Positions 4,048-45,355 of a stretch of DNA of 64,000 bases are shown piece after piece (the stretch's first letter is position 1; each line of letters begins with the position of its first letter). The notes below the pieces were generated by a model. That model did not search any database. It saw nothing but the letters and a program-made list of their open reading frames with translations, and was not told the origin of the DNA. A program made the position numbers and the translations under genes. Origin of the DNA: an uncultured bacterium (lineage in GTDB: Bacteria > Patescibacteriota > Saccharimonadia > UBA4664 > SCTI01); assembly GCA_963721685.1 (NCBI GenBank), contig CAVRJJ010000005.1:103943-167942 (forward strand). The letters are read 5' to 3'.

Positions 4048-4094
4048 AGGAGTATTGTAACCTGGTACGAATGTTACTTAAATAAGTGCGCCTT

Positions 4095-4127
4095 CCGGCA
4101 CGGACACCGAGAGGGCGTCCGTGCCGT
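4095..4127 (-). terminator. GC-rich hairpin downstream of high-GC gene 4156-4596
   Basis: cggcacggac-accgagaggg-cgtccgtgccg 10-bp stem; weak U-tract. Confidence 0.3.
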
Positions 4128-4155
4128 GATGACGACGACCGGATCGGAAGATCCA

Positions 4156-4596
4156 TCAGGCAGCCGCGGCAACAGCGGTGGGGACAGCGCTGTTGACCGT
4201 CGCGCTCCACTTGGAGTCGTTGCTGGAGATCCGGCGCCTGATGTTCGGCTTCCTCTGGAGGAGGCGCTTACGCAGCGCAACCGTAAGGCAGACGACCACA
4301 CCGTCGTTAACTGCCTTGGGCAGCGCCTTCTCCTTGTCGGCGCCGATGCGGCTGATGTTGAACTGCTCGATGATCGCGAGAACCTCCTCCACCTGGAGGT
4401 CGTTGAGGATGCCCTCGATCACGTCGTCAAGCGTGTCGGTGGTCGCGAGGCGATGCAGCCAGTCCTCAGGCAGATCCCTTGCTCGGTCGAGTTCGACCAA
4501 GATCTGGCTGGCGGCGGCCTGCAGCACCTTGCTGAGCTCCGGCGTCTCGATGTACGTGCTCTCCGCGGTTGCGGGGAGTGCTGTAGCTGTCATGGT
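4156..4596 (-). CDS. hypothetical protein on a high-GC insert between fpg and polA (start MTATALPATAES with AGGAGG RBS)
   Basis: taggagggatcacc-ATG on minus strand at 4596; GC visibly higher than flanks; no recognisable domain. Confidence 0.4.
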   Translation of the reverse strand, partial: TMTATALPATAESTYIETPELSKVLQAAASQILVELDRARDLPEDWLHRLATTDTLDDVIEGILNDLQVEEVLAIIEQFNISRIGADKEKALPKAVNDGVVVCLTVALRKRLLQRKPNIRRRISSNDSKWSATVNSAVPTAVAAAA

Positions 4597-4742
4597 GATC
4601 CCTCCTAGGAATCGTCGTCGAGGTAAAAGCATTGTGCTCCACCCATACTTTATTTATAGTCCTCTCTCCAGCTATGCGCAATGCTTACGCTGGTGATAGT
4701 CACAGAACGAATTGCTTTAAAGATGCTTTTTATTAGAGCTAC

Positions 4743-7475
4743 CTACAAGTCGCCCCAGCTTTTGCCCACTTTGGTATCTACCGCGATTGGCACGCCAAGA
4801 TCATAGACGTTTTCCATGGTGTCGCGCATGAGGTATGATACTTCTTCGGCCTGGCTTTCCTCAGCCTCAACGATCAGTTCGTCATGGATTTGCAGGAGTA
4901 GCATAGCGCCTTCGGGCAGTTTGGGTACCAGGGCAATCATCGCCAGCTTGATGATATCGGCGGCGGTGCCTTGAAGAGGCACATTCACCGCTACCCGTTC
5001 CGCGGCGTTGCGGATTAAAAAGTTATTTGAGTTAATTTCCGGTGAAGGTCGCCTGCGCCCCAGTAAGGTTTCGGTGTACTCATTCTTATGGGCGAACTCT
5101 TTTAATCCTTCAATATATTCTTTTAGGGTTTTGCGGATTTCAAAGTAGCGCTCAATGAACTGCACCGCCTCTTCACGGCTGATACCGGTGGCTACACTTA
5201 ACCCATGCGGACTCATGCCGTACAAGACGCCAAAGTTAATGGTTTTAGCGCTGTAGCGCTGCTCCGGCGTAACCTTATCCAGCGGCACCCCAAACATCTC
5301 GGCGGCGGTTTGCTGATGCAGGTCGATCCCCTTCTTGAAGGTTTCAATCATGCCTTTATCTTTACTGAGGGCGGCGGCAATGCGCAATTCAATTTGCGAA
5401 TAGTCGGCGCTAATGAATACGCGGCCCTTTTGGCGCTACAAAAGCTTTACGGATCTCGCGGCCAATTTCGGTGCGGACCGGAATGTTCTGCAAGTTGGGG
5501 TCGGTAGAATTAAGCCGTCCGGTTTGGGCAATGGTTTGGTTAAAGCGGGTATGGATGCGATTGTTTTTATCAACCAGCTTGGGCAGTGTTTCAACATAGG
5601 TTGATTGCAACTTGGCAAACTCCCGATAGCTGGAAATCATTGGTATGATCGGATGCGCGTCTTGTAGCTTTTCTAGCTCGTGAGCAGCCGTAGAAAGGCC
5701 GCCGGTTTTGCCTTTTTTCACCCCATGCGAAGGAAGCTTCAACTGGTTGAAAAGAATGTCGGACAGTTGGGCCGGAGAAGCGATATTAAACTTCTGTCCG
5801 GCGGCTTCCCAGATTTGCTCTTCCAGCTTTGCCAAATCCTTGGTTAACTTTTCATTAAACTTATTAAGGAAAGCGCTATCAAGTTCAATGCCCGCTATTT
5901 CCATCTGACCCAAGTATTTCAATTAACGGCCACTCGGTGGCTTTGCCGATCCGGTCAAAGCCCTGCTCCTTCAGCTCCGGTTCCATTTTTTGAAACAGCC
6001 GCCAGGTTATATCGGCGTCTTCGGCGGCGTAGGTAGTAGCCTCATCAATGGCGACATCATCAAAGGTAATTTGAGTCCGGCCGCTGCCAATTACCTCAGA
6101 AATCGGGATCATTTCAATGCCAAACTCTTTATACGCCAGGTCGTCCAATGACTGGGAACGGCCCAGCGGATTCAGCAAAAAAGCCGCGATCATGGTGTCA
6201 AACGAAATGGGGCTCGGCGTGATCCCGTGGCGAACAAGAATTTTGTAGTCGTATTTGGCATTGTGCGCGATCTTGCCAATGTCGGGGTCTTCAAAGGCCG
6301 GGCGCAGACGCATCCAGAATTACTTTTTTATTCAACTGTGAACCCTTTTTGTGCGCAACCGGAATGTAGTAGGCTTCAGCCTCTTTTAAGCTGACTGAAA
6401 TGCCAACCAGCTCGGCCTCCATTTCATTCACGCTCGTGGTTTCAGTGTCGAACGCGAACTCCTTGCTAGCTTGAAGGCGTTCAGCGAGTCTTGTTAATGC
6501 CGCTTCGGTCGTAATAGCCGTATAAGATGCGTTTTCCAAGTGCACACGCTGCTTTGCCGGCACCTCTACCCCGGGACCATCAAAGAGGTTGGGAGCTGAT
6601 ACCGTCATCTCTGGAGGCAGCTTGGTGAGCAAGGCCTTAAACTCCATCCGCCGAAACAGTTCCTGAATTTGTTGCTTGTTATACTGGCCAACCTCGGCCG
6701 GCTGTAAGTCCAGGTTGATAGGCGCGTCGCAGACAATGGTGGAAAGCTTTTGGCTTAAATAGGCCATATCTTTGTTCACTTCCAAGCGCTCTTTGAGCTT
6801 GCCTTTCAGCTGATCCAAATTGTTATACACGCCATCCAAACTACCGTAGGTTACGATGAGGTCTTTGGCGGTTTTCTCCCCTACTCCCGCGACGCCGGGA
6901 ATATTGTCGCTGGCATCACCCTTTAAGGCTTTAAGGTCAATGAACTGCTTGGGATCAACCCCGTAGCGTTCTTTGAGTTCAGGTAATCCATAAATAACGG
7001 TATCGGTAAAACCGCGCTTCATAGTGTAGATCTTGGTGTTTTCATCGATCAGCTGCAGTTCATCAAGATCGCCGGTTACAATAATGGTTTCCAAGCCTTG
7101 CTGTTCGGCCTGACGGCCAAGCGTACCAATAATGTCGTCGGCTTCGTAGTTGTCCAGCTCGATCCACGGCAAGCCCAATGCCTCGGTGACCTGGCGGGTG
7201 TAAGGTATTTGGGCATACAGGTCGTCGGGCTGCTTTTTGCGGGTAGCCTTGTATTCCGGGTACATTTCTTTGCGGAACGTATCACTCGATTTGTCCCAGG
7301 TGACAATCGCGTATTTTGGTTTTAGGTCGGATAACACCTTAAGCAGGATCATGGTGAAGCCATAGGTAGCGTTGGTAGGTATGCCCTCCGCGTTGGAAAG
7401 GTGCGGAATGGCGTGGTAGCCGCGATGAAACACAGCACTCCCATCAACCAGGACTAAGCGGTCTTTTTTACTCAT
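4743..7475 (-). CDS. polA: DNA polymerase I (5'-3' exo, 3'-5' exo-like, polymerase domains), split into 4 ORFs by three +1 frameshifts (near 6291-6313, 5885-5922, 5387-5410)
   Basis: Pieces carry MSKKDRLVLVDGSAVFHRGYHA (5' nuclease), KYDYKILVRHG, motif A region ISADYSQIELR (visible only after skipping one nt at ~5392), and RRRPSPEINS...QGTAADIIK...QIHDELIVEAEE motif C. Confidence 0.85.
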
Positions 7476-22657: not shown

Positions 22658-23404
22658 GTGAGTAATATTTTCCATCCAACCAGTTTTAACAACATTTCCG
22701 GATTAACCGTTGCCCTAAGCCTGCGTGACCAGGCGCAGCCCGGCGAATTTAGCATGCTGCCAACCAACACCACCATGGATGTTGTCATGGCTAACCGAAA
22801 ACAGTTCGCAGAAACACTTGGCTTTAAGGAAACGAGTCTTATACGAGCTAATCAAGACCATACCAATCTAGTGGAGGAAGTTACCGACGCCTATCCTACA
22901 ACGGATCCGCCCCAGGCCGACGCCTTAATTTCTAAGACTCCTGGATGGCTCATCGGCGTCACTATTGCCGACTGTGTCGGGCTGGCACTGTATGATCCGG
23001 TGAATTCCGCCCTTGGCATCGTCCATTCGGGCCGCAAAGGGACGATTGGTCGTATCGCTTCCAACACGATCCACAAAATGCAAGAATCGTACGGTACTGA
23101 TCCTGCAGAACTCCTCGTGTATCTTTCACCCTGCCCAAACCCCGACGAATATCCGATTGACCTCGATACCGCCAAAGCTTGCGACCCCCGCTACCTATCC
23201 CCTACTTCCAACCCCAATGAGGTTTATTATGACAACCGCCTAGCGGTTTATGACCAACTAATTGAAGAAGGGGTTGCTCCTGAACATATTGAAATCGATG
23301 AACGCTCAACTATAAGTAACCCCCAGCTCCACTCTTATCGTCGTGACGGGGATAAAGCCGGGCGAATGATGCTCGCGATCGGTTTAAAAAATGAAAAGTT
23401 TTAA
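22658..23404 (+). CDS. pgeF: YfiH/PgeF family (DUF152) purine nucleoside phosphorylase/peptidoglycan editing factor
   Basis: TIADCVGLALYDP and IVHSGRKG motifs. Confidence 0.7.
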   Translation: MSNIFHPTSFNNISGLTVALSLRDQAQPGEFSMLPTNTTMDVVMANRKQFAETLGFKETSLIRANQDHTNLVEEVTDAYPTTDPPQADALISKTPGWLIGVTIADCVGLALYDPVNSALGIVHSGRKGTIGRIASNTIHKMQESYGTDPAELLVYLSPCPNPDEYPIDLDTAKACDPRYLSPTSNPNEVYYDNRLAVYDQLIEEGVAPEHIEIDERSTISNPQLHSYRRDGDKAGRMMLAIGLKNEKF

Positions 23405-23439
23405 TAATTGCTGGTAAACGGACCAGAACACAAACACGT

Positions 23440-23466
23440 GGGGGCGGAGCTCGTCGCTCCGCCCCC
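23440..23466 (+). terminator. GC hairpin gggggcggagc-tcgtc-gctccgccccc after pgeF
   Basis: 11-bp perfect stem 36 nt after stop; no strong T-tract. Confidence 0.45.
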
Positions 23467-23549
23467 AGTGTCACTCCAACCCACGCGGGCCTACGTGGGT
23501 TATGACTGGCGTGAATCGCCGGTCAGTTTGGTTTAGGCGCGGCAGGCGC

Positions 23550-23783
23550 CTAGGTGATCAGCGTGTCGCCACCGAGGTCGGGCGCGTCGCCGAGGGCGTC
23601 GTCGATGATGTCGTCGTCGGCCGCGTTCGAGGTGACCCGGAGGAAGCCGCCGTCGGGCGTGATGGGCAAGCCGGCCTCGAGGTGATGGCAGTGCGCGCCG
23701 CGCGTGTCGCGGTCGATCTCGTGCGCGATGCCGTCGCCGAGGGTGAGGCCATAGTCCTTCGGCGGTGCCAGAATTCCCAGCAT
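23550..23783 (-). CDS. small acidic hypothetical protein (77 aa, MLGILAPPKDYGL...) on high-GC cassette; ORF-track 151-aa version over-extended
   Basis: aggagcaggatc-ATG RBS at 23783; conserved 5' element lies upstream at 23891-23987. Confidence 0.4.
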   Translation of the reverse strand: MLGILAPPKDYGLTLGDGIAHEIDRDTRGAHCHHLEAGLPITPDGGFLRVTSNAADDDIIDDALGDAPDLGGDTLIT

Positions 23784-23890
23784 GATCCTGCTCCTCTTCT
23801 TGCGATGAATAGCAACGCTTAACGATCCCGTCAGCTTATCAGATGCTCCGATAGCTTCATTGGTCGTTTGGTGGTCGATCCTCGAATACG

Positions 23891-23987
23891 TTGCTGTAAC
23901 CCGAGCAAAAAATAACCATATAAAATGGTGAACTTTTGCTCGGGTTACGACGTTGTGTTCTGGTCTGTCAAAGAAATAATCGTAATT
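23891..23987 (-). promoter_or_regulatory. cassette 5' element copy A: TTTCTTTGACAGACCAGAAC plus 15-bp-stem hairpin GTAACCCGAGCAAAA/TTTTGCTCGGGTTAC
   Basis: Read directly; same architecture as 27659-27756 and 29313-29423. Confidence 0.6.
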
Positions 23988-24146
23988 TGCAATATGCATA
24001 ACCACAACTACTGGTAATAAAGTATATAATTCATTTTCGAAATGTCAACAAAAAGCACCGACACTTCATTTTTGTCTTGACTACTGCGTATCCTGATAGC
24101 AACCGATCAAACGATAGGCGCAGGCAAGTGAAGAACGTATTTGTGA

Positions 24147-25237: not shown

Positions 25238-26070
25238 TGACACATCAGAACATAGGAGACGCGGGCGGGGGCCGTCCAAAGCCCCCGCCTTGTGAATGCG
25301 CCTCTGGCACCGATCCAGAGGTAGGCGATAGGATCGGCATCAGCTGTGCCGCAGGTGCGGCAGAAACTACGGAAGATCCAGCGAACGGCAACTGAGGCCG
25401 ACGGGAGGGGAAACGACCCCAGCCACCGTTCGCTTTACAGGGCTTGACCTTCTCCAACGCGCGACTCCCTGAGTGACGCGCGGTATGCACGCGGTAGACA
25501 GCTAAATGTCACTGCCAAAGCCGCGTACGTTTGAGCGCCGAGGCGCGGCGCCTAGATCTGATTCGAACTGCCACCGCCGGATCGCTTCGAGGTGGAGACC
25601 ATCCCCGGAAGGTTCACGACCTTGCCGGTTGTGGACCTGATCGGCAGGCCAGGAGGCGGCATGCCGAACGGAACCTTCTCGGTCCCCCGATGTCGTGTCG
25701 TCATTTGACGCTCCTGATGGGCGCGCTGTTGCGCTGTCGGAGGTACCTCGTCGGACTGACCGCCGTCGACGATGTCGAGACCACGCTGTACGTAGTGGTC
25801 GGCCGCAACACGGCGACCGGAGTGGTACTGGGGCCCGCTGCAGACGAGCCGTTGGTATGGCCATTCATCGATGAATCCCCTCTTCTAGCTGCGCGAAGAC
25901 AGTGGCTGCCAAGCCACGAGACAACATTCCGTGATCCATCCTTGCAATCAAAGACGCTTGTCTCATCCGTAGATATATCGCGCATATATCCCGAACAGCT
26001 AACCGCCAATATAAATTAGAAGCTGGCTGTCCGGGACAAAAACCGAAATTCGCTATGTTCTGATGTGTCA
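25238..26070. mobile_element. 833-bp high-GC cassette bounded by 17-bp perfect inverted repeats TGACACATCAGAACATA; right end also carries the TTGACA-type cassette 5' motif; small Ser/Thr-rich ORFs inside (e.g. 25701-25868 minus, 56 aa, GAGGGGA RBS)
   Basis: IRs at 25238-25254 and 26054-26070 read directly; coding content ambiguous (all six frames open due to GC). Confidence 0.35.
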
Positions 26071-26264
26071 AAGAATGTCGCGAATACTTATAAATAACCG
26101 CAACTGGTAAGACATTGTAGTTATACTTGCCAGAAGCGTCAACCCAGCAAGCCGTTGCGGGCTCTGCACCTTTAACCTGGCCGCTTTGTCAAAAAGCTCA
26201 TAAAAGCGAATAATTGCTGTTAGAACAGGCTTGAACACAATAGCAGGCATAGCGAGGTGGACAT

Positions 26265-26739
26265 AGTCGACATGGTGGCGGGCCGAAGCCCGCCACCGGT
26301 CGAGTTGAAGGGCTAGATGCCCGGTTGCGGGTCACTCCACTTGCTGTATCGCTGGCCGACGATGCGGTACTCGATGACTCCGTTCACATACACCGGCTTC
26401 TTCTCGACGTAGTAGACGCAGTCCAGCGTCGTGATCTTCCAGCGCTGCCAGTCGACGCGCTTGCAGGCCCCGTAAGGCACATTCGTGGCGTTTGAAACGC
26501 CCCATGCCTGGACGACTGCATCTTGAGCTTCAAGGCATGTCGGCATCGCGGGGTGATCGATCTTGGCCGCGATGTTGAAGAACACCGCAGTCGGACTCGG
26601 AGACCAACAGGGGTTCCAGTCTGGGTCGCACTCGCCCCTTGTTCCGTAGTCGTTGTAGTCAGGTTGCACCTGGCTGACCGGCGTGCTCGCACCAGCCACT
26701 GGCCACGGCGAGTTAATCGGTTGCGCGTCGTAGTAGTAG
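26265..26739. repeat. 475-bp block nucleotide-identical to 27881-28355 (3' gene ends plus 3' hairpin); second identical block 26792-26873 = 28408-28489
   Basis: Direct base-by-base comparison; mosaic identity. Confidence 0.9.
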
Positions 26740-27602
26740 TCGACATAGGTTGCCGCCCCATCATCAAGATCCATGATCTTGATTTGGGCCCGCTGCTGTA
26801 CGGGGCCCCGCCCGTAGGTGTCCAGCGCCGGGTCATAGGCGTTGGGGTAGTGGTAGTAGATCGGGAACGGCGTCGAACCTTGGAGTTGGAAATCCTGGTA
26901 GTAGCCGTCGCCAGAGTGAATCCGAATCCGCCGACCCACACCATTGTCTGTGTTGGCCGTCCGCGGGACGTTGATGATCAACTCTGCCCGAATGAGCTTG
27001 TTCGAAGTACCCGTCGGGTGAGTCAATCCACTAGTCGTCGATTCCGTGTGGCTCCTTGTTGAAAACGAGGAAGACACAAGCTTGTCTTCCTTTGCCACGT
27101 AATACCCGCCTTGGAAGGAATCGATTACAGTCGATCTCGTATACGGAGACGTCGGTACAGGAGCCAAAGCCGAGGTTTGGCTCCCCCCGTATTGCGAAAC
27201 GTATGGAGCGCTGGCATTTGCGCGTGCGCGCGACTCAGCAGTGGAACTTCCTGGAGCTCCAAGCATGCCTTGTCCCGCTGCTTCTACTGCGCGACGGGCT
27301 GTGTCACCCCGAATTGACTGCTTTGAAGGGCAAGCCGATCCAGTTGTTTTGATGACGGTGATGACCCACTTGGTGCCGTCCCACTGAGCACGCAGGTAGA
27401 CATAAACGTCGCATTGCTGCCCGCTCGAGCAGAAGATGAGCTTCGTGGTTGGCGTAGCCGGATTTGCCGAGACAATGCAGTAGTGCGGCAAGCCCGTCAC
27501 CGGGTCCGGAATGTGGAAGGCGGCACTCGCTGGCGACGGCGCAACTGCCATTGCCACGGACACTACGATGGCGGCTGCCAACGTAGTAAATAGTCTTTGC
27601 AT
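26313..27602 (-). CDS. secreted Cys-rich hypothetical protein, paralog A (signal peptide MQRLFTTLAAAIVVSVAMAVAPSPASA)
   Basis: 429 aa; C-terminal 190 aa identical to paralog B; 6 Cys in last 90 aa. Confidence 0.6.
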   Translation of the reverse strand: MQRLFTTLAAAIVVSVAMAVAPSPASAAFHIPDPVTGLPHYCIVSANPATPTTKLIFCSSGQQCDVYVYLRAQWDGTKWVITVIKTTGSACPSKQSIRGDTARRAVEAAGQGMLGAPGSSTAESRARANASAPYVSQYGGSQTSALAPVPTSPYTRSTVIDSFQGGYYVAKEDKLVSSSFSTRSHTESTTSGLTHPTGTSNKLIRAELIINVPRTANTDNGVGRRIRIHSGDGYYQDFQLQGSTPFPIYYHYPNAYDPALDTYGRGPVQQRAQIKIMDLDDGAATYVDYYYDAQPINSPWPVAGASTPVSQVQPDYNDYGTRGECDPDWNPCWSPSPTAVFFNIAAKIDHPAMPTCLEAQDAVVQAWGVSNATNVPYGACKRVDWQRWKITTLDCVYYVEKKPVYVNGVIEYRIVGQRYSKWSDPQPGI

Positions 27603-27658
27603 CTGATGCTCCTCACATGTAGCTGGGCAGTGAAAGGCAATTACCTCGTTCTCGAGCT

Positions 27659-27756
27659 CACTGCTGTAACCCGAGAAAAAGCTTGCAATAGATTATCTAC
27701 AAACTCATTTTCGGGTTACAGCAGTGTTCTGATCTGTCAAAGAAAATGCCGTAATC
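27659..27756 (-). promoter_or_regulatory. cassette 5' element copy C (19-bp stem cactgctgtaacccga.aaa / ttttcgggttacagcagtg, then GTTCTGATCTGTCAAAGAAA)
   Basis: 57 nt upstream of paralog A start. Confidence 0.6.
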
Positions 27757-27928
27757 AAACCTAATAGGAGCAACTACGACAAGTGTAGGGATTCTAATGC
27801 TTACTGTTGCACTTCGTCAATAGCGCCAATTTAAATAATTGCATTTGAAACGGATCAGAAGACTTTTAACTTGAGTTGTTAGTCGACATGGTGGCGGGCC
27901 GAAGCCCGCCACCGGTCGAGTTGAAGGG

Positions 27929-29254
27929 CTAGATGCCCGGTTGCGGGTCACTCCACTTGCTGTATCGCTGGCCGACGATGCGGTACTCGATGACTCCGTT
28001 CACATACACCGGCTTCTTCTCGACGTAGTAGACGCAGTCCAGCGTCGTGATCTTCCAGCGCTGCCAGTCGACGCGCTTGCAGGCCCCGTAAGGCACATTC
28101 GTGGCGTTTGAAACGCCCCATGCCTGGACGACTGCATCTTGAGCTTCAAGGCATGTCGGCATCGCGGGGTGATCGATCTTGGCCGCGATGTTGAAGAACA
28201 CCGCAGTCGGACTCGGAGACCAACAGGGGTTCCAGTCTGGGTCGCACTCGCCCCTTGTTCCGTAGTCGTTGTAGTCAGGTTGCACCTGGCTGACCGGCGT
28301 GCTCGCACCAGCCACTGGCCACGGCGAGTTAATCGGTTGCGCGTCGTAGTAGTAGAACGCGTAGGACACGCTCCTGTCGTCGAGATCCTCAATCTTCAGA
28401 ACCGCATGCTGCTGTACGGGGCCCCGCCCGTAGGTGTCCAGCGCCGGGTCATAGGCGTTGGGGTAGTGGTAGTAGATCGGGAACGGCGTGGTGGTCGATA
28501 TGAACATGTCCACGTGCGAGCCGTCGCCGGCGGAGATCCTGATGCGCCGGCCGTTGATGTTGGTACGCGGCACATTGACTACGAGCCCCGCCTCCATCAC
28601 CTTGTTCGAAGTACCCGTCGGCTGCTTGAGCACAGCGGTCTCGGCGTGATTTCTTGGCGTGATCCCGCCCGTTGATCCGCCCTTTGCCCGGATGGTTCCA
28701 CCGTCGAAACTTTCGATAGCGGTGAACGGCCGTGCATATGGCGCCGGGGGTGTCTGGCTGGTCGACCATGTCGGATTTGAAGCGGTCAGATATGGGGCCG
28801 TCCCCTTCGCCCTTGCAGACGCCGCCGGCCCCCAGCCTGGCGGCGGAGGATTCGCTCCACCGGGATCACCCAACATCCCCTTGCCAGCCTGTTCGACGGC
28901 TCGCTTTCCCTTGGCCGCGCGTTGCGCTCGCCTGGCCGGGGTCGCACCTACCGCCGTCGATTCCGTCACGACCCACTTGCCGTTGATGAACTCAGCGCGC
29001 ATCCAGATGGAGACGCTGCTGCGCGTCCCGTCGACGCAGTGCACAACGGCTACGCGCGGCCCTTCGCCCCGATCGATGACGACGCAGGTCAACTCCTCTC
29101 CCGTTTCCGGGTCGGTGATGATGTAGGCCTCAATCCCTTCGCCACCGGGAATGAAGATGGGGCCGTTCGCGCTTGCTGGTGACGGCGAGAACGCCATGGC
29201 CAGCATCGCGGCAACGGTTACGCATAGAGCCATCCGACGTTTTCTCATTTTCAT
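27929..29254 (-). CDS. secreted Cys-rich hypothetical protein, paralog B (true start MKMRKRRMALCVTVAAMLAMAF at 29254; track ORF over-extended to 29449)
   Basis: gggagcattctc-ATG RBS; signal peptide; conserved blocks TGTSNK..VNVPRT, TPFPIYYHYPNAYDPALDTYGRGPVQQ shared with A. Confidence 0.6.
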   Translation of the reverse strand: MKMRKRRMALCVTVAAMLAMAFSPSPASANGPIFIPGGEGIEAYIITDPETGEELTCVVIDRGEGPRVAVVHCVDGTRSSVSIWMRAEFINGKWVVTESTAVGATPARRAQRAAKGKRAVEQAGKGMLGDPGGANPPPPGWGPAASARAKGTAPYLTASNPTWSTSQTPPAPYARPFTAIESFDGGTIRAKGGSTGGITPRNHAETAVLKQPTGTSNKVMEAGLVVNVPRTNINGRRIRISAGDGSHVDMFISTTTPFPIYYHYPNAYDPALDTYGRGPVQQHAVLKIEDLDDRSVSYAFYYYDAQPINSPWPVAGASTPVSQVQPDYNDYGTRGECDPDWNPCWSPSPTAVFFNIAAKIDHPAMPTCLEAQDAVVQAWGVSNATNVPYGACKRVDWQRWKITTLDCVYYVEKKPVYVNGVIEYRIVGQRYSKWSDPQPGI

Positions 29255-29312
29255 GAGAATGCTCCCTTGGTTGCTGGTAACAGTGTATGGTGAATCTTTA
29301 TCGACCTCAGGT

Positions 29313-29423
29313 CCACTGCGTAACCCGAGCAAAAAACCACCAAAAAAGTATGGTGGACTTGTGCCCCGGGTTACGCCCGGTAAATTTATGTGTCCTAACC
29401 TGTCAAAGAAACTAGTCGTAATT
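29313..29423 (-). promoter_or_regulatory. cassette 5' element copy D (imperfect hairpin gcgtaacccgagcaaaaaaccacca / tggtggacttgtgccccgggttacgc, then CCTGTCAAAGAAA)
   Basis: Upstream of paralog B start. Confidence 0.5.
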
Positions 29424-29558
29424 AGAGAAAAAGCTCTAATTGCGGCCACATGGTATTAGATTCTATAATGAATTTTTAATTTGTCAATATATGTTCAGCC
29501 AGCAGAAAGAGCCTACTATAGCTCTTTCTGCTCAATATCAATTATCCTGTTCTGAGCT

Positions 29559-42385: not shown

Positions 42386-42411
42386 GAACGCCCCCTCCAG
42401 GGCGTTCTCAA
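42386..42411 (-). terminator. hairpin gagaacgccc-cctccag-ggcgttctc downstream of 42453-43064
   Basis: 10-bp stem; weak U-tract. Confidence 0.3.
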
Positions 42412-42452
42412 TCGATTGACGGAGGTCGCCTGGAGGAGACGCTTGGATCGTG

Positions 42453-43064
42453 CTAGCAGCCGAGTGGCTTCAGTGCCGCTTCCGGCAGCGTATCCACGAG
42501 GTCTGCGAGGTGGCCCAGGTTGACCGGCTCCCTCAGCTGGTTGAAAGGACAGATCAGGACGAGCCCGATCTCGGTCTGCCGGTAGATGCACTCGTAGCAG
42601 ACCAGCCCATGGAACATGGCCAGCATCGCTGCGAGTTGCAGCATGGTGCCCACGTTGAAATCGGAGGTCGCGTACCTGCAGTTGTCCGTGAGTCCACCGA
42701 CGGTGACCAGCATCTCGTTGAGATCGAGGAACCCGCCGGAAACGTGCCTGTAGAGCAGCATGCTCCCGGAGCGAGGAACGCAGACGATCGCGTCCCCGAC
42801 CATCGGAGGCGAGACCACGGCGCGCGGCACGGTGTAGTCAGCTTGAACTCGCACCCGTGGCTGATGCCGCCGGGTGTGGTTCCTCATCAGCGTCAGGATG
42901 CCGACGGAGCCGAGCAAGGCGATCGTGGAGCCGAGGGGCATCCACTTCGGACCCTCGACCCAGCCACTGAGGTAGGCGGAGGTAATGATCGCGGACAAAC
43001 CTACGGCGATCAAAAAGAACGGCCACATGGGGCCGGTGTACGAAACCCTACTTGAAATCGACAT
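42453..43064 (-). CDS. high-GC membrane protein with C-terminal Cys-rich region, hypothetical (start MSISSRVSY, GGAGGA RBS)
   Basis: RBS plus ATG at 43064; 2 TM helices. Confidence 0.4.
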   Translation of the reverse strand: MSISSRVSYTGPMWPFFLIAVGLSAIITSAYLSGWVEGPKWMPLGSTIALLGSVGILTLMRNHTRRHQPRVRVQADYTVPRAVVSPPMVGDAIVCVPRSGSMLLYRHVSGGFLDLNEMLVTVGGLTDNCRYATSDFNVGTMLQLAAMLAMFHGLVCYECIYRQTEIGLVLICPFNQLREPVNLGHLADLVDTLPEAALKPLGC

Positions 43065-43180
43065 TGATGCTATCCTCCAGGTTGGGGTAGGCCCTATCGC
43101 TAGGGGGCTGACATCAGTCAACACATTGCAGATAATAATACCATATTTATACTAATATAGCAAATTTTGATATTTGAAAT

Positions 43181-43258: not shown

Positions 43259-43684
43259 CTAAGACTTTTTTATCCTGAGCGGGTTAACTAATTTGAGCCC
43301 CTCAATATGCTGAAAATCATCCTTATTTGCAGTCCATAGCGCAACATCATGCTCAAGAACCGTAGCCGCTATGATCGAGTCACCTAAGCTCATGCGTCTG
43401 GCCTGGCGGAGTTTAATTGCTCGATCAACGATTGCGTCAGTAAGCGCAAGGCTATACGACTCCCCAAAGAGAGCATCAAGCAGTAGCAGCTCATTGGCAG
43501 GAATTCGGGCGTAGCCAAGCGCTTCAATTTTTGTGATGCTGGCGTGAGCTATGTCAGTTTCTGCAATAACATGGCGATCGAGCGTACCGTTTGAAAGATA
43601 AATAAATATATTGGTGTCGAGAATGATCACCAGAATTACTCTCTTCCTGGTAGAGAACGATCCGCACGATTCGTGCGCTGCCAT
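43259..43684 (-). CDS. vapC: PIN-domain toxin VapC
   Basis: ILDTNIFIYL...TANKDDF PIN acidic residues. Confidence 0.75.
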   Translation of the reverse strand: MAAHESCGSFSTRKRVILVIILDTNIFIYLSNGTLDRHVIAETDIAHASITKIEALGYARIPANELLLLDALFGESYSLALTDAIVDRAIKLRQARRMSLGDSIIAATVLEHDVALWTANKDDFQHIEGLKLVNPLRIKKS

Positions 43685-44286: not shown

Positions 44287-44553
44287 TTACAGCCTAGCCG
44301 GAGAGCCAAAAGCAATTTTCCTGGTCGTGATGTAGTAGTCATCTGCATCTGGCCGAGGTAATGGTTCCCCAAGTTCAACCAGCGTTTCCAGGTAAAGTTT
44401 GATGGCTTGCTCCATGTTGGTGACAGCTGTATCAATTGTTGCACCAAAATCGGACAAACCTAAAGAGGGTGCATAGGCTACATAGACAGTTTTGCCATCC
44501 TGCTGCTCTTGCTCGACGATAATTCTATAGTTAGATACTGTAGTTTTCATATG
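44287..44553 (-). CDS. hicB: HicB antitoxin (start MKTTVSNYRII; track ORF over-extended into repeat R3)
   Basis: UPF0150-like: YAPSLGLSDFGATIDTAVTNMEQAIKLYLETL. Confidence 0.65.
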   Translation of the reverse strand, partial: HMKTTVSNYRIIVEQEQQDGKTVYVAYAPSLGLSDFGATIDTAVTNMEQAIKLYLETLVELGEPLPRPDADDYYITTRKIAFGSPARL

Positions 44554-44617
44554 ACCAATTATATCATGTTCACCGACGCAATTATCTGTTGAAGTTGGCA
44601 GTCTCCACAGAAAGAAT

Positions 44618-44675
44618 AAGCATAAGCTTAATGGTGCGACACACTGGCTGCGGTTAGAACCTTTTATTATCGTAT
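44618..44675. repeat. att-like repeat R3
   Basis: aagcataagcttaatggtgcgacacactggctgcggttagaaccttttattatcgtatagc. Confidence 0.8.
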
Positions 44676-44818
44676 AGCAAATCATATCAGGCAAATGGGA
44701 TTGGAAGAAATTAGAACTTTCAATGGTGGAAGCCTATAGATTTTCGAGCTTTTGCCTAGACGTGCAGGCGCCCCGCTGGGCGAGGTGCCTGCGGGGCGCT
44801 AGTTGGACCTCTTGCTCT

Positions 44819-45355
44819 TTATGCGAACCCAGGTTCGGGAACGACGCTCGAGGAGCCGGGACGGCCGGTGACACGCATCTCGCGCATCCCCTTCCGTGCG
44901 CCCTCAAGCCACAGCCACTCGTTCGTTCCACCGTGGACGCAGATCAGGTGCCCGTGCTCGGGACATCCGAGGAGGTTGAGGGACTCGTGATCGATCCAGT
45001 CAACGTTCTCCATGCAGGTCGGGCAGACGATCTGGAGGTTGACCCACCCCTGCTTCCTGGTTGGGTTGTAGGTGACCTCAACCAGGTTGCCGGGACCGTG
45101 AACCTGCATGTAGCCCCGGGGAAGGGTCGTGGTGTAGCCACGCACCTCCCAGGGAGCCAGACTCGGGTACTTGGGCTTGTCAATGCCCTTGACCTCGAGA
45201 TGGATGTCACCTCCGCATGCCAGGGGGAAGCAGAGGTTGCGCAAGCCATGCGCTCCCGCCGGATGCTGATCGAAGAGGTTCAGGACGAAGTCCCACTTGG
45301 ACGGTCCCTTGCCGGTTTCCAGCGAAATGGGCAGAATGTAAGCCAATTGACTCAC
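44819..45355 (-). CDS. high-GC hypothetical protein with Cys/His clusters (CPTC...CPEHGHLIC)
   Basis: ORF only; start uncertain. Confidence 0.3.
   Translation of the reverse strand: MSQLAYILPISLETGKGPSKWDFVLNLFDQHPAGAHGLRNLCFPLACGGDIHLEVKGIDKPKYPSLAPWEVRGYTTTLPRGYMQVHGPGNLVEVTYNPTRKQGWVNLQIVCPTCMENVDWIDHESLNLLGCPEHGHLICVHGGTNEWLWLEGARKGMREMRVTGRPGSSSVVPEPGFA

Follow-up and report, generated by a model that had tools for sequence, protein, structure and literature searches.

How two neighboring genes can be strongly diverged over most of their length and yet end in the same DNA, letter for letter, is the question raised by a locus in the genome of an uncultured bacterium assigned to the Patescibacteriota (Saccharimonadia, UBA4664, SCTI01). 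The locus lies within a window of 64,000 nucleotides (nt), meaning the whole stretch of DNA analyzed, which spans positions 103,943 to 167,942 of contig CAVRJJ010000005.1 (assembly GCA_963721685.1). The two genes, A and B, are paralogs arranged head to tail on the minus strand with a spacer of 326 nt, and both encode predicted secreted proteins of a rare family. The favored answer, held at a probability of a little under four in five, is that A and B are old tandem duplicates whose 3′ ends were homogenized by recent gene conversion, most likely in the direction from B to A. The features on which this answer depends are as follows.

27929 to 29254, minus strand: gene B, an intact open reading frame (ORF) of 441 amino acids with a GC content at third codon positions (GC3) of 0.76; P0001 in the protein collection
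26313 to 27602, minus strand: gene A, the paralog of B, an intact ORF of 429 amino acids with a GC3 of 0.68; P0002 in the protein collection
26264 to 26739 (A) and 27880 to 28355 (B), minus strand: first identical tract, 476 nt, exact
26740 to 26791 (A) and 28356 to 28407 (B), minus strand: divergent patch of 52 nt, about 58% identity
26792 to 26873 (A) and 28408 to 28489 (B), minus strand: second identical tract, 82 nt, exact, with a GC3 of 0.93
26274 to 26297 (after A) and 27890 to 27913 (after B), minus strand: GC-rich hairpin GGTGGCGGGCTTCGGCCCGCCACC, without a T-tract
26207 to 26240 (downstream of A) and 27834 to 27862 (downstream of B), minus strand: right-end block, reading TGTGTTC...CAGCAATTATTCG at A

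When the nucleotides of A and B are compared at a constant offset of 1616 nt, the boundaries of identity are abrupt. The first-pass annotation of this DNA had described a mosaic of 475, about 55 and 82 nt that included the stop codon and the hairpin, and the measured lengths of 476, 52 and 82 nt agree closely with it. The final 142 codons of each gene fall within the first tract, as do the stop codon, the GC-rich hairpin and 10 nt past it, and all aligned codons of this tract (141/141) are identical. The second tract encodes TPFPIYYHYPNAYDPALDTYGRGPVQQ, the most conserved motif of the family. Between them, the patch holds 18 codons, eight of which specify the same amino acid in both genes and just two of those eight by the same nucleotides. 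On the 5′ side of the 82-nt tract, identity is 56-74% over about 150 nt, after which the genes are unalignable without gaps; at the flanks of the tracts it drops to 24-64% within 50 nt. In their upstream parts, the proteins agree at 94 of 232 aligned residues (40.5%), which matches an earlier estimate of about 40% for the N-terminal halves.

Aside from these sharp boundaries, the signature of gene conversion is found in the sites that selection on protein sequence does not see, which are identical inside the tracts and saturated outside them. Among positions with identical amino acids, the same codon is used at 38 of 94 outside the tracts versus 167 of 167 inside, and at a background of 40% the probability of 167 straight codon matches is about 1e-66. 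The identity also extends through the stop codon, the hairpin and the 10 further nt, and 49 nt of non-coding sequence are identical. Chance and protein-level selection fail to explain this identity; the sequence was copied recently. Since synonymous and non-coding identity is beyond the reach of selection, a recent non-reciprocal recombination is indicated. The codon statistics, the diverged flanks and the GC3 asymmetry presented below all agree with the initial proposal of recent recombination or gene conversion acting on the 3′ part of genes whose 5′ parts had diverged.

The duplication itself appears to be old, since A and B do not share a promoter, a leader, a ribosome-binding site or a downstream block; the versions that belong to the two genes are homologous but only about 60-75% alike. 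Gene A is preceded by a GAGGAG ribosome-binding site. The start of gene B is most plausibly at 29254, with a GGGAG ribosome-binding site 7 nt upstream, and a longer ORF for B beginning with GTG at 29449 would cross the promoter and leader.

With respect to the direction of transfer, composition provides the clue. The GC content is 0.584 for A and 0.624 for B against 0.51 for the backbone, whose genes have GC3 values of 0.50-0.60. GC and GC3 thus do exceed the backbone, as the first-pass annotation had remarked, but the rise is only moderate (58-62% versus 51%). The parts unique to each gene have a GC3 of 0.605 in A and 0.733 in B, and the 476-nt tract has one of 0.776. The tract differs from the unique part of A (Fisher p=5e-4, or 2.5e-5 with both tracts included) and shows no difference from that of B (p=0.40), while the GC3 of the patch resembles that of the gene in which it lies, at 0.59 in A and 0.77 in B. 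Because the GC3 of the tract resembles B and not the unique part of A, B is most likely the donor and A the recipient whose sequence was overwritten. The highest GC3 is found in the most recently converted segments, and the raised GC could reflect either a foreign or phage origin or GC-biased conversion.

At the protein level, both N-termini carry the predicted Sec signal peptides that had been noted at the outset, each with a basic n-region, a hydrophobic core and ASA right before the predicted cleavage site, which falls between MQRLFTTLAAAIVVSVAMAVAPSPASA and AF in A and between MKMRKRRMALCVTVAAMLAMAFSPSPASA and NG in B. There is no lipobox Cys and no later hydrophobic segment (past residue 30, no 19-residue stretch exceeds a hydropathy of 0.85), so that the sequence features are those of proteins secreted through Sec and processed by signal peptidase I. 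The layout of B consists of the signal peptide, an N-terminal beta domain, a linker, an Ig-like domain and an orphan C-terminal extension. Across the family, the signal peptide is followed by a small beta domain, in which a Cys pair is conserved and a 'RAVE' helix is present, and then by a linker rich in Pro, Thr and Ala. The conserved domain of about 100 amino acids bears the motif R-x-I-x-V-x2-GDG ... YPNAYD-x3-D-x2-G-x-GP ... D-x-DDG ... YDAQP, followed by a short Cys loop. Only A and B continue past this loop, for about 100 amino acids in which aromatic residues (14% W/Y/F) and proline are frequent and three further Cys occur. In all, the shared C-terminal part has five Cys (residues 325, 332, 356, 380 and 395 of A) where six had been reported, and at 3.5% Cys the earlier label of a Cys-rich protein is hardly apt.

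The Ig-like domain is modeled as a seven-strand beta-sandwich, for which PKD, FN3 and E-set domains rank highest among structural matches. The 52-nt patch encodes the F-G beta-hairpin of this domain, corresponding to residues 271-288 of A, approximately (model strands E268-278 and E283-293). On this model, the converted tract would be essentially the orphan tail together with the strand that ends the Ig-like domain. The homogenized piece had been taken at first for the C-terminal domain of a family; it is instead an orphan extension that no other family member has, and a search with a hidden Markov model (HMM) of the family detected no relative of it. Structure prediction from the two sequences alone reached a confidence (predicted local distance difference test, pLDDT) of 36, and a viral fold search returned nothing significant. 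A and B may act as effectors or adhesins, as first proposed.

The family is exceedingly rare. When 1.84 billion cluster representatives, which stand in for about 15 billion proteins, were searched exhaustively with the HMM, only eight remote relatives were recovered (E values of 5e-23 to 3e-5, lengths of 118-356 amino acids), which brings the family to ten members. All eight are metagenomic, cover just profile positions from about 10 to 320, and lack the C-terminal extension. A word-indexed search of 5.8 billion clusters with single sequences found only A and B, and its profile version added only P0009, which was already known; none of 50,697 phage records was matched by A in tblastn. The relative P0009 (L001, 5854-6900; Logan SRR28401763) has a signal peptide and lies between ThyX and a helicase in a DNA-metabolism module. 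Its contig of 16.5 kb is coded on one strand and carries a PHROG helicase, an ATP-dependent ligase, ThyX and a tail-fiber protein, the ligase and tail-fiber genes being downstream; by this gene content it belongs to a phage. Of the others, P0004 is on a contig of 67% GC with small co-directional ORFs, P0010 adjoins an fn3/DUF4082 protein, and P0003, the closest relative, is at 62% GC inside a contig of about 50% GC (L003). A search for homologues in related and actinobacterial genomes had been suggested at the outset; none of the relatives, one of which is phage-borne, comes from a named genome, which leaves an actinobacterial origin without support. The relative on the phage contig points to a role in surface interactions between cells or between cell and phage.

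Taken together, these data favor a scenario in which a gene encoding a secreted protein with an Ig-like domain was duplicated in tandem long ago. The 5′ two-thirds of the copies diverged, leaving an amino-acid identity of about 40% and saturated synonymous sites, and the 3′ ends were recently homogenized by non-reciprocal homologous recombination. The homogenized span opens with the most conserved family motif, takes in the orphan extension and the stop codon, and closes shortly beyond the 3′ hairpin. Since homologous recombination requires stretches of identity, conversion was probably recurrent and seeded in the conserved motif and the 3′ hairpin region. The 52-nt patch may have escaped either because it was too diverged for heteroduplex formation, and so posed a barrier, or because converted versions were counter-selected. 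The outcome is two proteins with different N-terminal and Ig-hairpin surfaces and one common tail. With low confidence, the N-terminal domain and F-G hairpin could carry differing binding specificities and, with equally low confidence, the aromatic, five-Cys tail could anchor or present the protein at the surface of a small-genome, probably patescibacterial epibiont.

A number of points weigh against this account. No family for A, B or their homologues was found in Pfam, NCBIfam-style and PHROGs scans, and sequence and profile searches of the PDB gave no meaningful match; the function of A and B as surface-binding proteins is wholly our inference, and the C-terminal extension is modeled with a pLDDT below 45. 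Only composition speaks to the donor, and the counts for the patch are small (17 codons). Orthologues of A and B from related genomes were not found in any collection searched; they would be needed for per-segment phylogenies, the classic test of conversion. Lastly, the tandem arrangement and exact identity come from a single assembly that has frameshifts in polA, and the sole independent contig from the same population (Logan, ERR12037361) ends at about 26064, some 200 nt short of gene A.

The alternative that survives best, though an improbable one, is a chimera created by import. The B unit would have been duplicated recently, and the 5′ part of one copy, including the promoter and leader, would have been replaced by diverged family DNA from another strain, for example through natural transformation. 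The same pattern of identity would result, and the B-like GC3 of the tracts beside the lower GC3 of the unique part of A would be understandable if the latter came from another lineage. Members of the family are also cassette-like and are found with the same leader in different genomes, as on L003. However, the right-end block past the hairpin is also diverged though homologous, so replacement would be needed on both sides, and a 610-nt island with an internal imported patch of 52 nt would call for at least four crossovers. Furthermore, no candidate donor allele is present among the roughly 15 billion proteins represented in the HMM search.

An assembly or polishing artefact is distinctly less probable still. 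Two alleles of one locus might have been misjoined in tandem, or similar 3′ ends might have been made identical by consensus polishing. The polA gene (4743-7475), which runs in three frames, suggests indel errors and possibly a polished long-read assembly; the independent contig, built from short reads, stops too early to confirm A or B, and the protein collection holds no A or B fragment from another assembly. Collapsed alleles would nonetheless share flanks, whereas here the promoters, leaders, 5′ coding parts and downstream blocks all differ and both ORFs are intact and head to tail. Polishing, for its part, is unable to turn about 60% similarity into identity or to spare a sharply bounded patch of 52 nt inside a tract.

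Finally, there is next to no chance that purifying selection on an essential C-terminal domain, or hypermutation of the patch by a diversity-generating-retroelement type of mechanism, accounts for the locus: the 82-nt tract does encode the most conserved motif and Patescibacteria do carry diversity-generating retroelements, but selection is refuted by the identity of every synonymous site and of 49 non-coding nt, and as for hypermutation, six of the eight amino-acid-identical patch codons differ synonymously, the substitutions occur at all four bases instead of at adenines only, and no reverse transcriptase is found among the window ORFs of at least 150 amino acids. On the last two grounds, the patch was rejected as a diversity-generating retroelement target.

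Gene conversion between A and B, the reading retained here, is of an ordinary kind; it is the orphan family and an odd cassette-like setting that are out of the ordinary, and the cassette architecture is a more unusual feature than the conversion. This context, namely four units with a common promoter, a structured leader and inverted-repeat ends, lay outside the description in the first-pass annotation. The four high-GC units, termed 0, X, A and B, occupy the interval between pgeF and groEL, with pgi separating unit 0 from unit X. Their parts are listed below, together with the corresponding parts at P0003.

23403 to 24048, minus strand: unit 0, with the shared promoter, box, hairpin and right-end block; its cargo is an unrelated ORF of 77 amino acids
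25238 to 26142, minus strand: unit X, sharing the promoter, box and hairpin and continuing with DNA at about 60% GC for about 730 nt
27791 to 27820, minus strand: sigma-70-like promoter of unit A, TTGACG-18-TAGAAT, 10 of 12 consensus positions
29460 to 29487, minus strand: sigma-70-like promoter of unit B, TTGACA-16-TAGAAT, 11 of 12 consensus positions
23880 to 23975 (unit 0), 25980 to 26075 (X), 27650 to 27744 (A) and 29305 to 29410 (B), minus strand: 5′ leader with the TTCTTTGACA box and hairpin, at four cargos
1559 to 1650 of L003, plus strand: 5′ leader at P0003, in another metagenome
23403 to 23437 and 23956 to 23975 (unit 0), 25238 to 25255 and 26053 to 26070 (X), 2760 to 2800 (L003): inverted-repeat sites, perfect over 18 nt in X

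Every unit begins with a promoter that ranks among the best sigma-70-like promoters of the region (10-11 of 12 positions) and a leader of about 60 nt, and then presents in order the box TTCTTTGACAGATCAGAACA, a long hairpin, the cargo, the GC-rich hairpin and the right-end block. The box has five matches in the window, all between 23.9 and 29.4 kb, versus 0.11 expected. The leader hairpin has a consensus stem of 23 bp with compensatory changes at 11 pairs over five copies, and the folding z-scores of the leaders range from -4.5 to -8. At the other end, the right-end block TGTGTTCTGRTCYGTT...CAGCAATTATT is conserved and has the opposite orientation to the box, and its ...CAGCAATTATT portion is present in all units. 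Inverted repeats bracket each high-GC cargo, matching at 18/18 positions in X, 16/18 in unit 0 and 11/16 in L003, and more weakly in A and B; the promoters lie outside them. The repeats of the box and right end co-vary unit by unit, with 'ACC' shared in unit 0 and both ends changed in L003. The P0003 unit on L003 is built like the units of the window in its promoter, box, leader hairpin and right end.

Beyond the four clustered copies of the unit in the window and the one on L003, none was found in three public collections. A covariance model of the leader gave no further copies in the window or beside other family members, and Rfam has no family for it, the one match to a microRNA being a spurious hairpin match. 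Pattern scans for the box and hairpin gave only chance matches to eukaryotic coding sequences in metagenomes and nothing useful in viral collections. A genome scan produced one exact 22-nt match to the box, TTTCTTTGACACACCAGAACAC, in a metagenome-assembled genome of Patescibacteria (JBFLWV010000036.1; L004, 5992-6061). A small hairpin comes next, in a long non-coding stretch without comparable context, and the match is either fortuitous or a far-removed relative of the leader. The units show no target-site duplication, and no recombinase, transposase or reverse transcriptase is encoded among the window ORFs of at least 150 amino acids.

Turning to the other cargos, the 77-amino-acid ORF of unit 0 (23550-23783, minus strand) has a GC3 of 0.92 in a genome of 51% GC. 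Its sole relative in the protein collection is a 75-amino-acid version with a 6-nt in-frame indel on a Logan contig from ERR12037361, which has the same synteny of pgeF, the 77-amino-acid type of ORF and pgi; the pgi genes are 100% identical. The interior of unit X (25256-26052) amounts to about 800 nt at about 60% GC with no convincing ORF and no database match, and blastn against plasmid records also gave no match; it may be a decayed cassette.

Candidate explanations for the units include non-autonomous cassettes, insertions at palindromic sites, Correia-like promoter elements between genes, and transcripts with paired 5′ and 3′ ends. Integron gene cassettes were rejected, as each unit has its own promoter (10-11 of 12), no tyrosine recombinase is found among the window ORFs of at least 150 amino acids, and pgi interrupts the units. 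A bolder and, at present, unlikely proposal is that A and B are the cargo of an undescribed kind of gene cassette, probably patescibacterial, which installs and expresses foreign or phage-derived secreted proteins between housekeeping genes and whose modules are reshuffled by recombination between cassettes. Its grounds are the combination of promoter, TTCTTTGACA box and covarying hairpin, the inverted repeats that co-vary by unit, the unrelated high-GC cargos, and the occurrence in at least two genomes.

The remainder of the window is largely a housekeeping backbone that includes groES-groEL, pgi, pgeF, murE, FemAB-family genes, an F-ATPase operon, valS, dnaG, rpoD and polA. On the minus strand, polA (4743-7475) reads as three separate ORFs (6291-7475, 5410-5922 and 4743-5387) that do not share a frame; this may represent either a pseudogene or assembly indel errors and bears on the trust to be placed in single-base details. 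Between 51403 and 62268, a region of strongly positive AT skew, there is a monoderm-type type IV secretion cluster comprising a pilin of the system, an orphan protein of 992 amino acids, PrgI, a VirB4/TraG-like ATPase and a protein of 1246 amino acids with a GDSL esterase domain. The cluster is consistent with a patescibacterial host. Together with the housekeeping content and the modest length of the parent contig (466 kb), it fits a small-genome organism that is probably patescibacterial or saccharibacterial. Further islands of about 60-62% GC occur at 51-651, 4051-4651, 42401-43101 and 44701-45351, with orphan ORFs that have no Pfam match and with neither box nor hairpin. One of these ORFs (4156-4632, minus strand) starts with a Tat-like signal, RRRFLGG, and PIN and HicB-like toxin-antitoxin genes (43259-43684 and 44287-44694) are located between two of the islands.

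Conversion between tandem surface-protein paralogs is textbook biology, and the core finding changes no view of it. What the locus offers is a clean and dated case in which a genome-reduced, probably episymbiotic bacterium shares a module between two proteins, and hardly any surface proteins of this bacterium have been characterized. The family is nearly unique to its lineage, and within it an orphan tail of about 100 amino acids is actively spread or maintained by recombination. If a role in host attachment or phage resistance is true, the contrast between a variable head and a constant tail would mark the parts that recognize partners. The cassette architecture could offer a way into the question of how foreign genes are taken up and expressed in organisms of this kind.

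Several known systems provide a basis for comparison. Like phage morons, mobile insertion cassettes and Correia-type elements, the units combine their own promoter and 3′ hairpin with atypical GC, short inverted repeats at their ends and no transposase of their own, and one family member is on a phage contig. Unlike them, the units sit between housekeeping genes and not in a prophage, have no target-site duplication, and keep the promoter outside the inverted repeats; to our knowledge, a covarying 23-bp leader hairpin is found in none of these elements. The predicted domain fold may resemble PKD and E-set Ig-like domains in its seven-strand beta-sandwich, invariant GDG after the second strand and aromatic 'Y-x-N-A-Y' strand. 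It departs from the PKD consensus in the family motif YPNAYDxxxDxxGxGP, and neither the full proteins nor ten excised domains matched a Pfam PKD model (PF00801 or PF18911) at E values up to 10, nor were PDB sequences matched even at E=10.

For the conversion itself, the closest parallels are paralogous outer-surface or adhesin genes in other bacteria, such as babA/babB/babC of Helicobacter pylori, opa and pilE/pilS of Neisseria, and tufA/tufB of Salmonella. A literature search found no description of such conversion in small-genome, probably patescibacterial organisms. The locus differs from those systems in having only two visible copies without an archive of silent cassettes, in showing no phase-variation repeats or switching machinery, and in that the homogenized module is an orphan extension present in no other family member. 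What it has in common with them is a mosaic of sharply bounded identity tracts beside diverged segments, in which the presumed surface parts differ and the common module is kept uniform.

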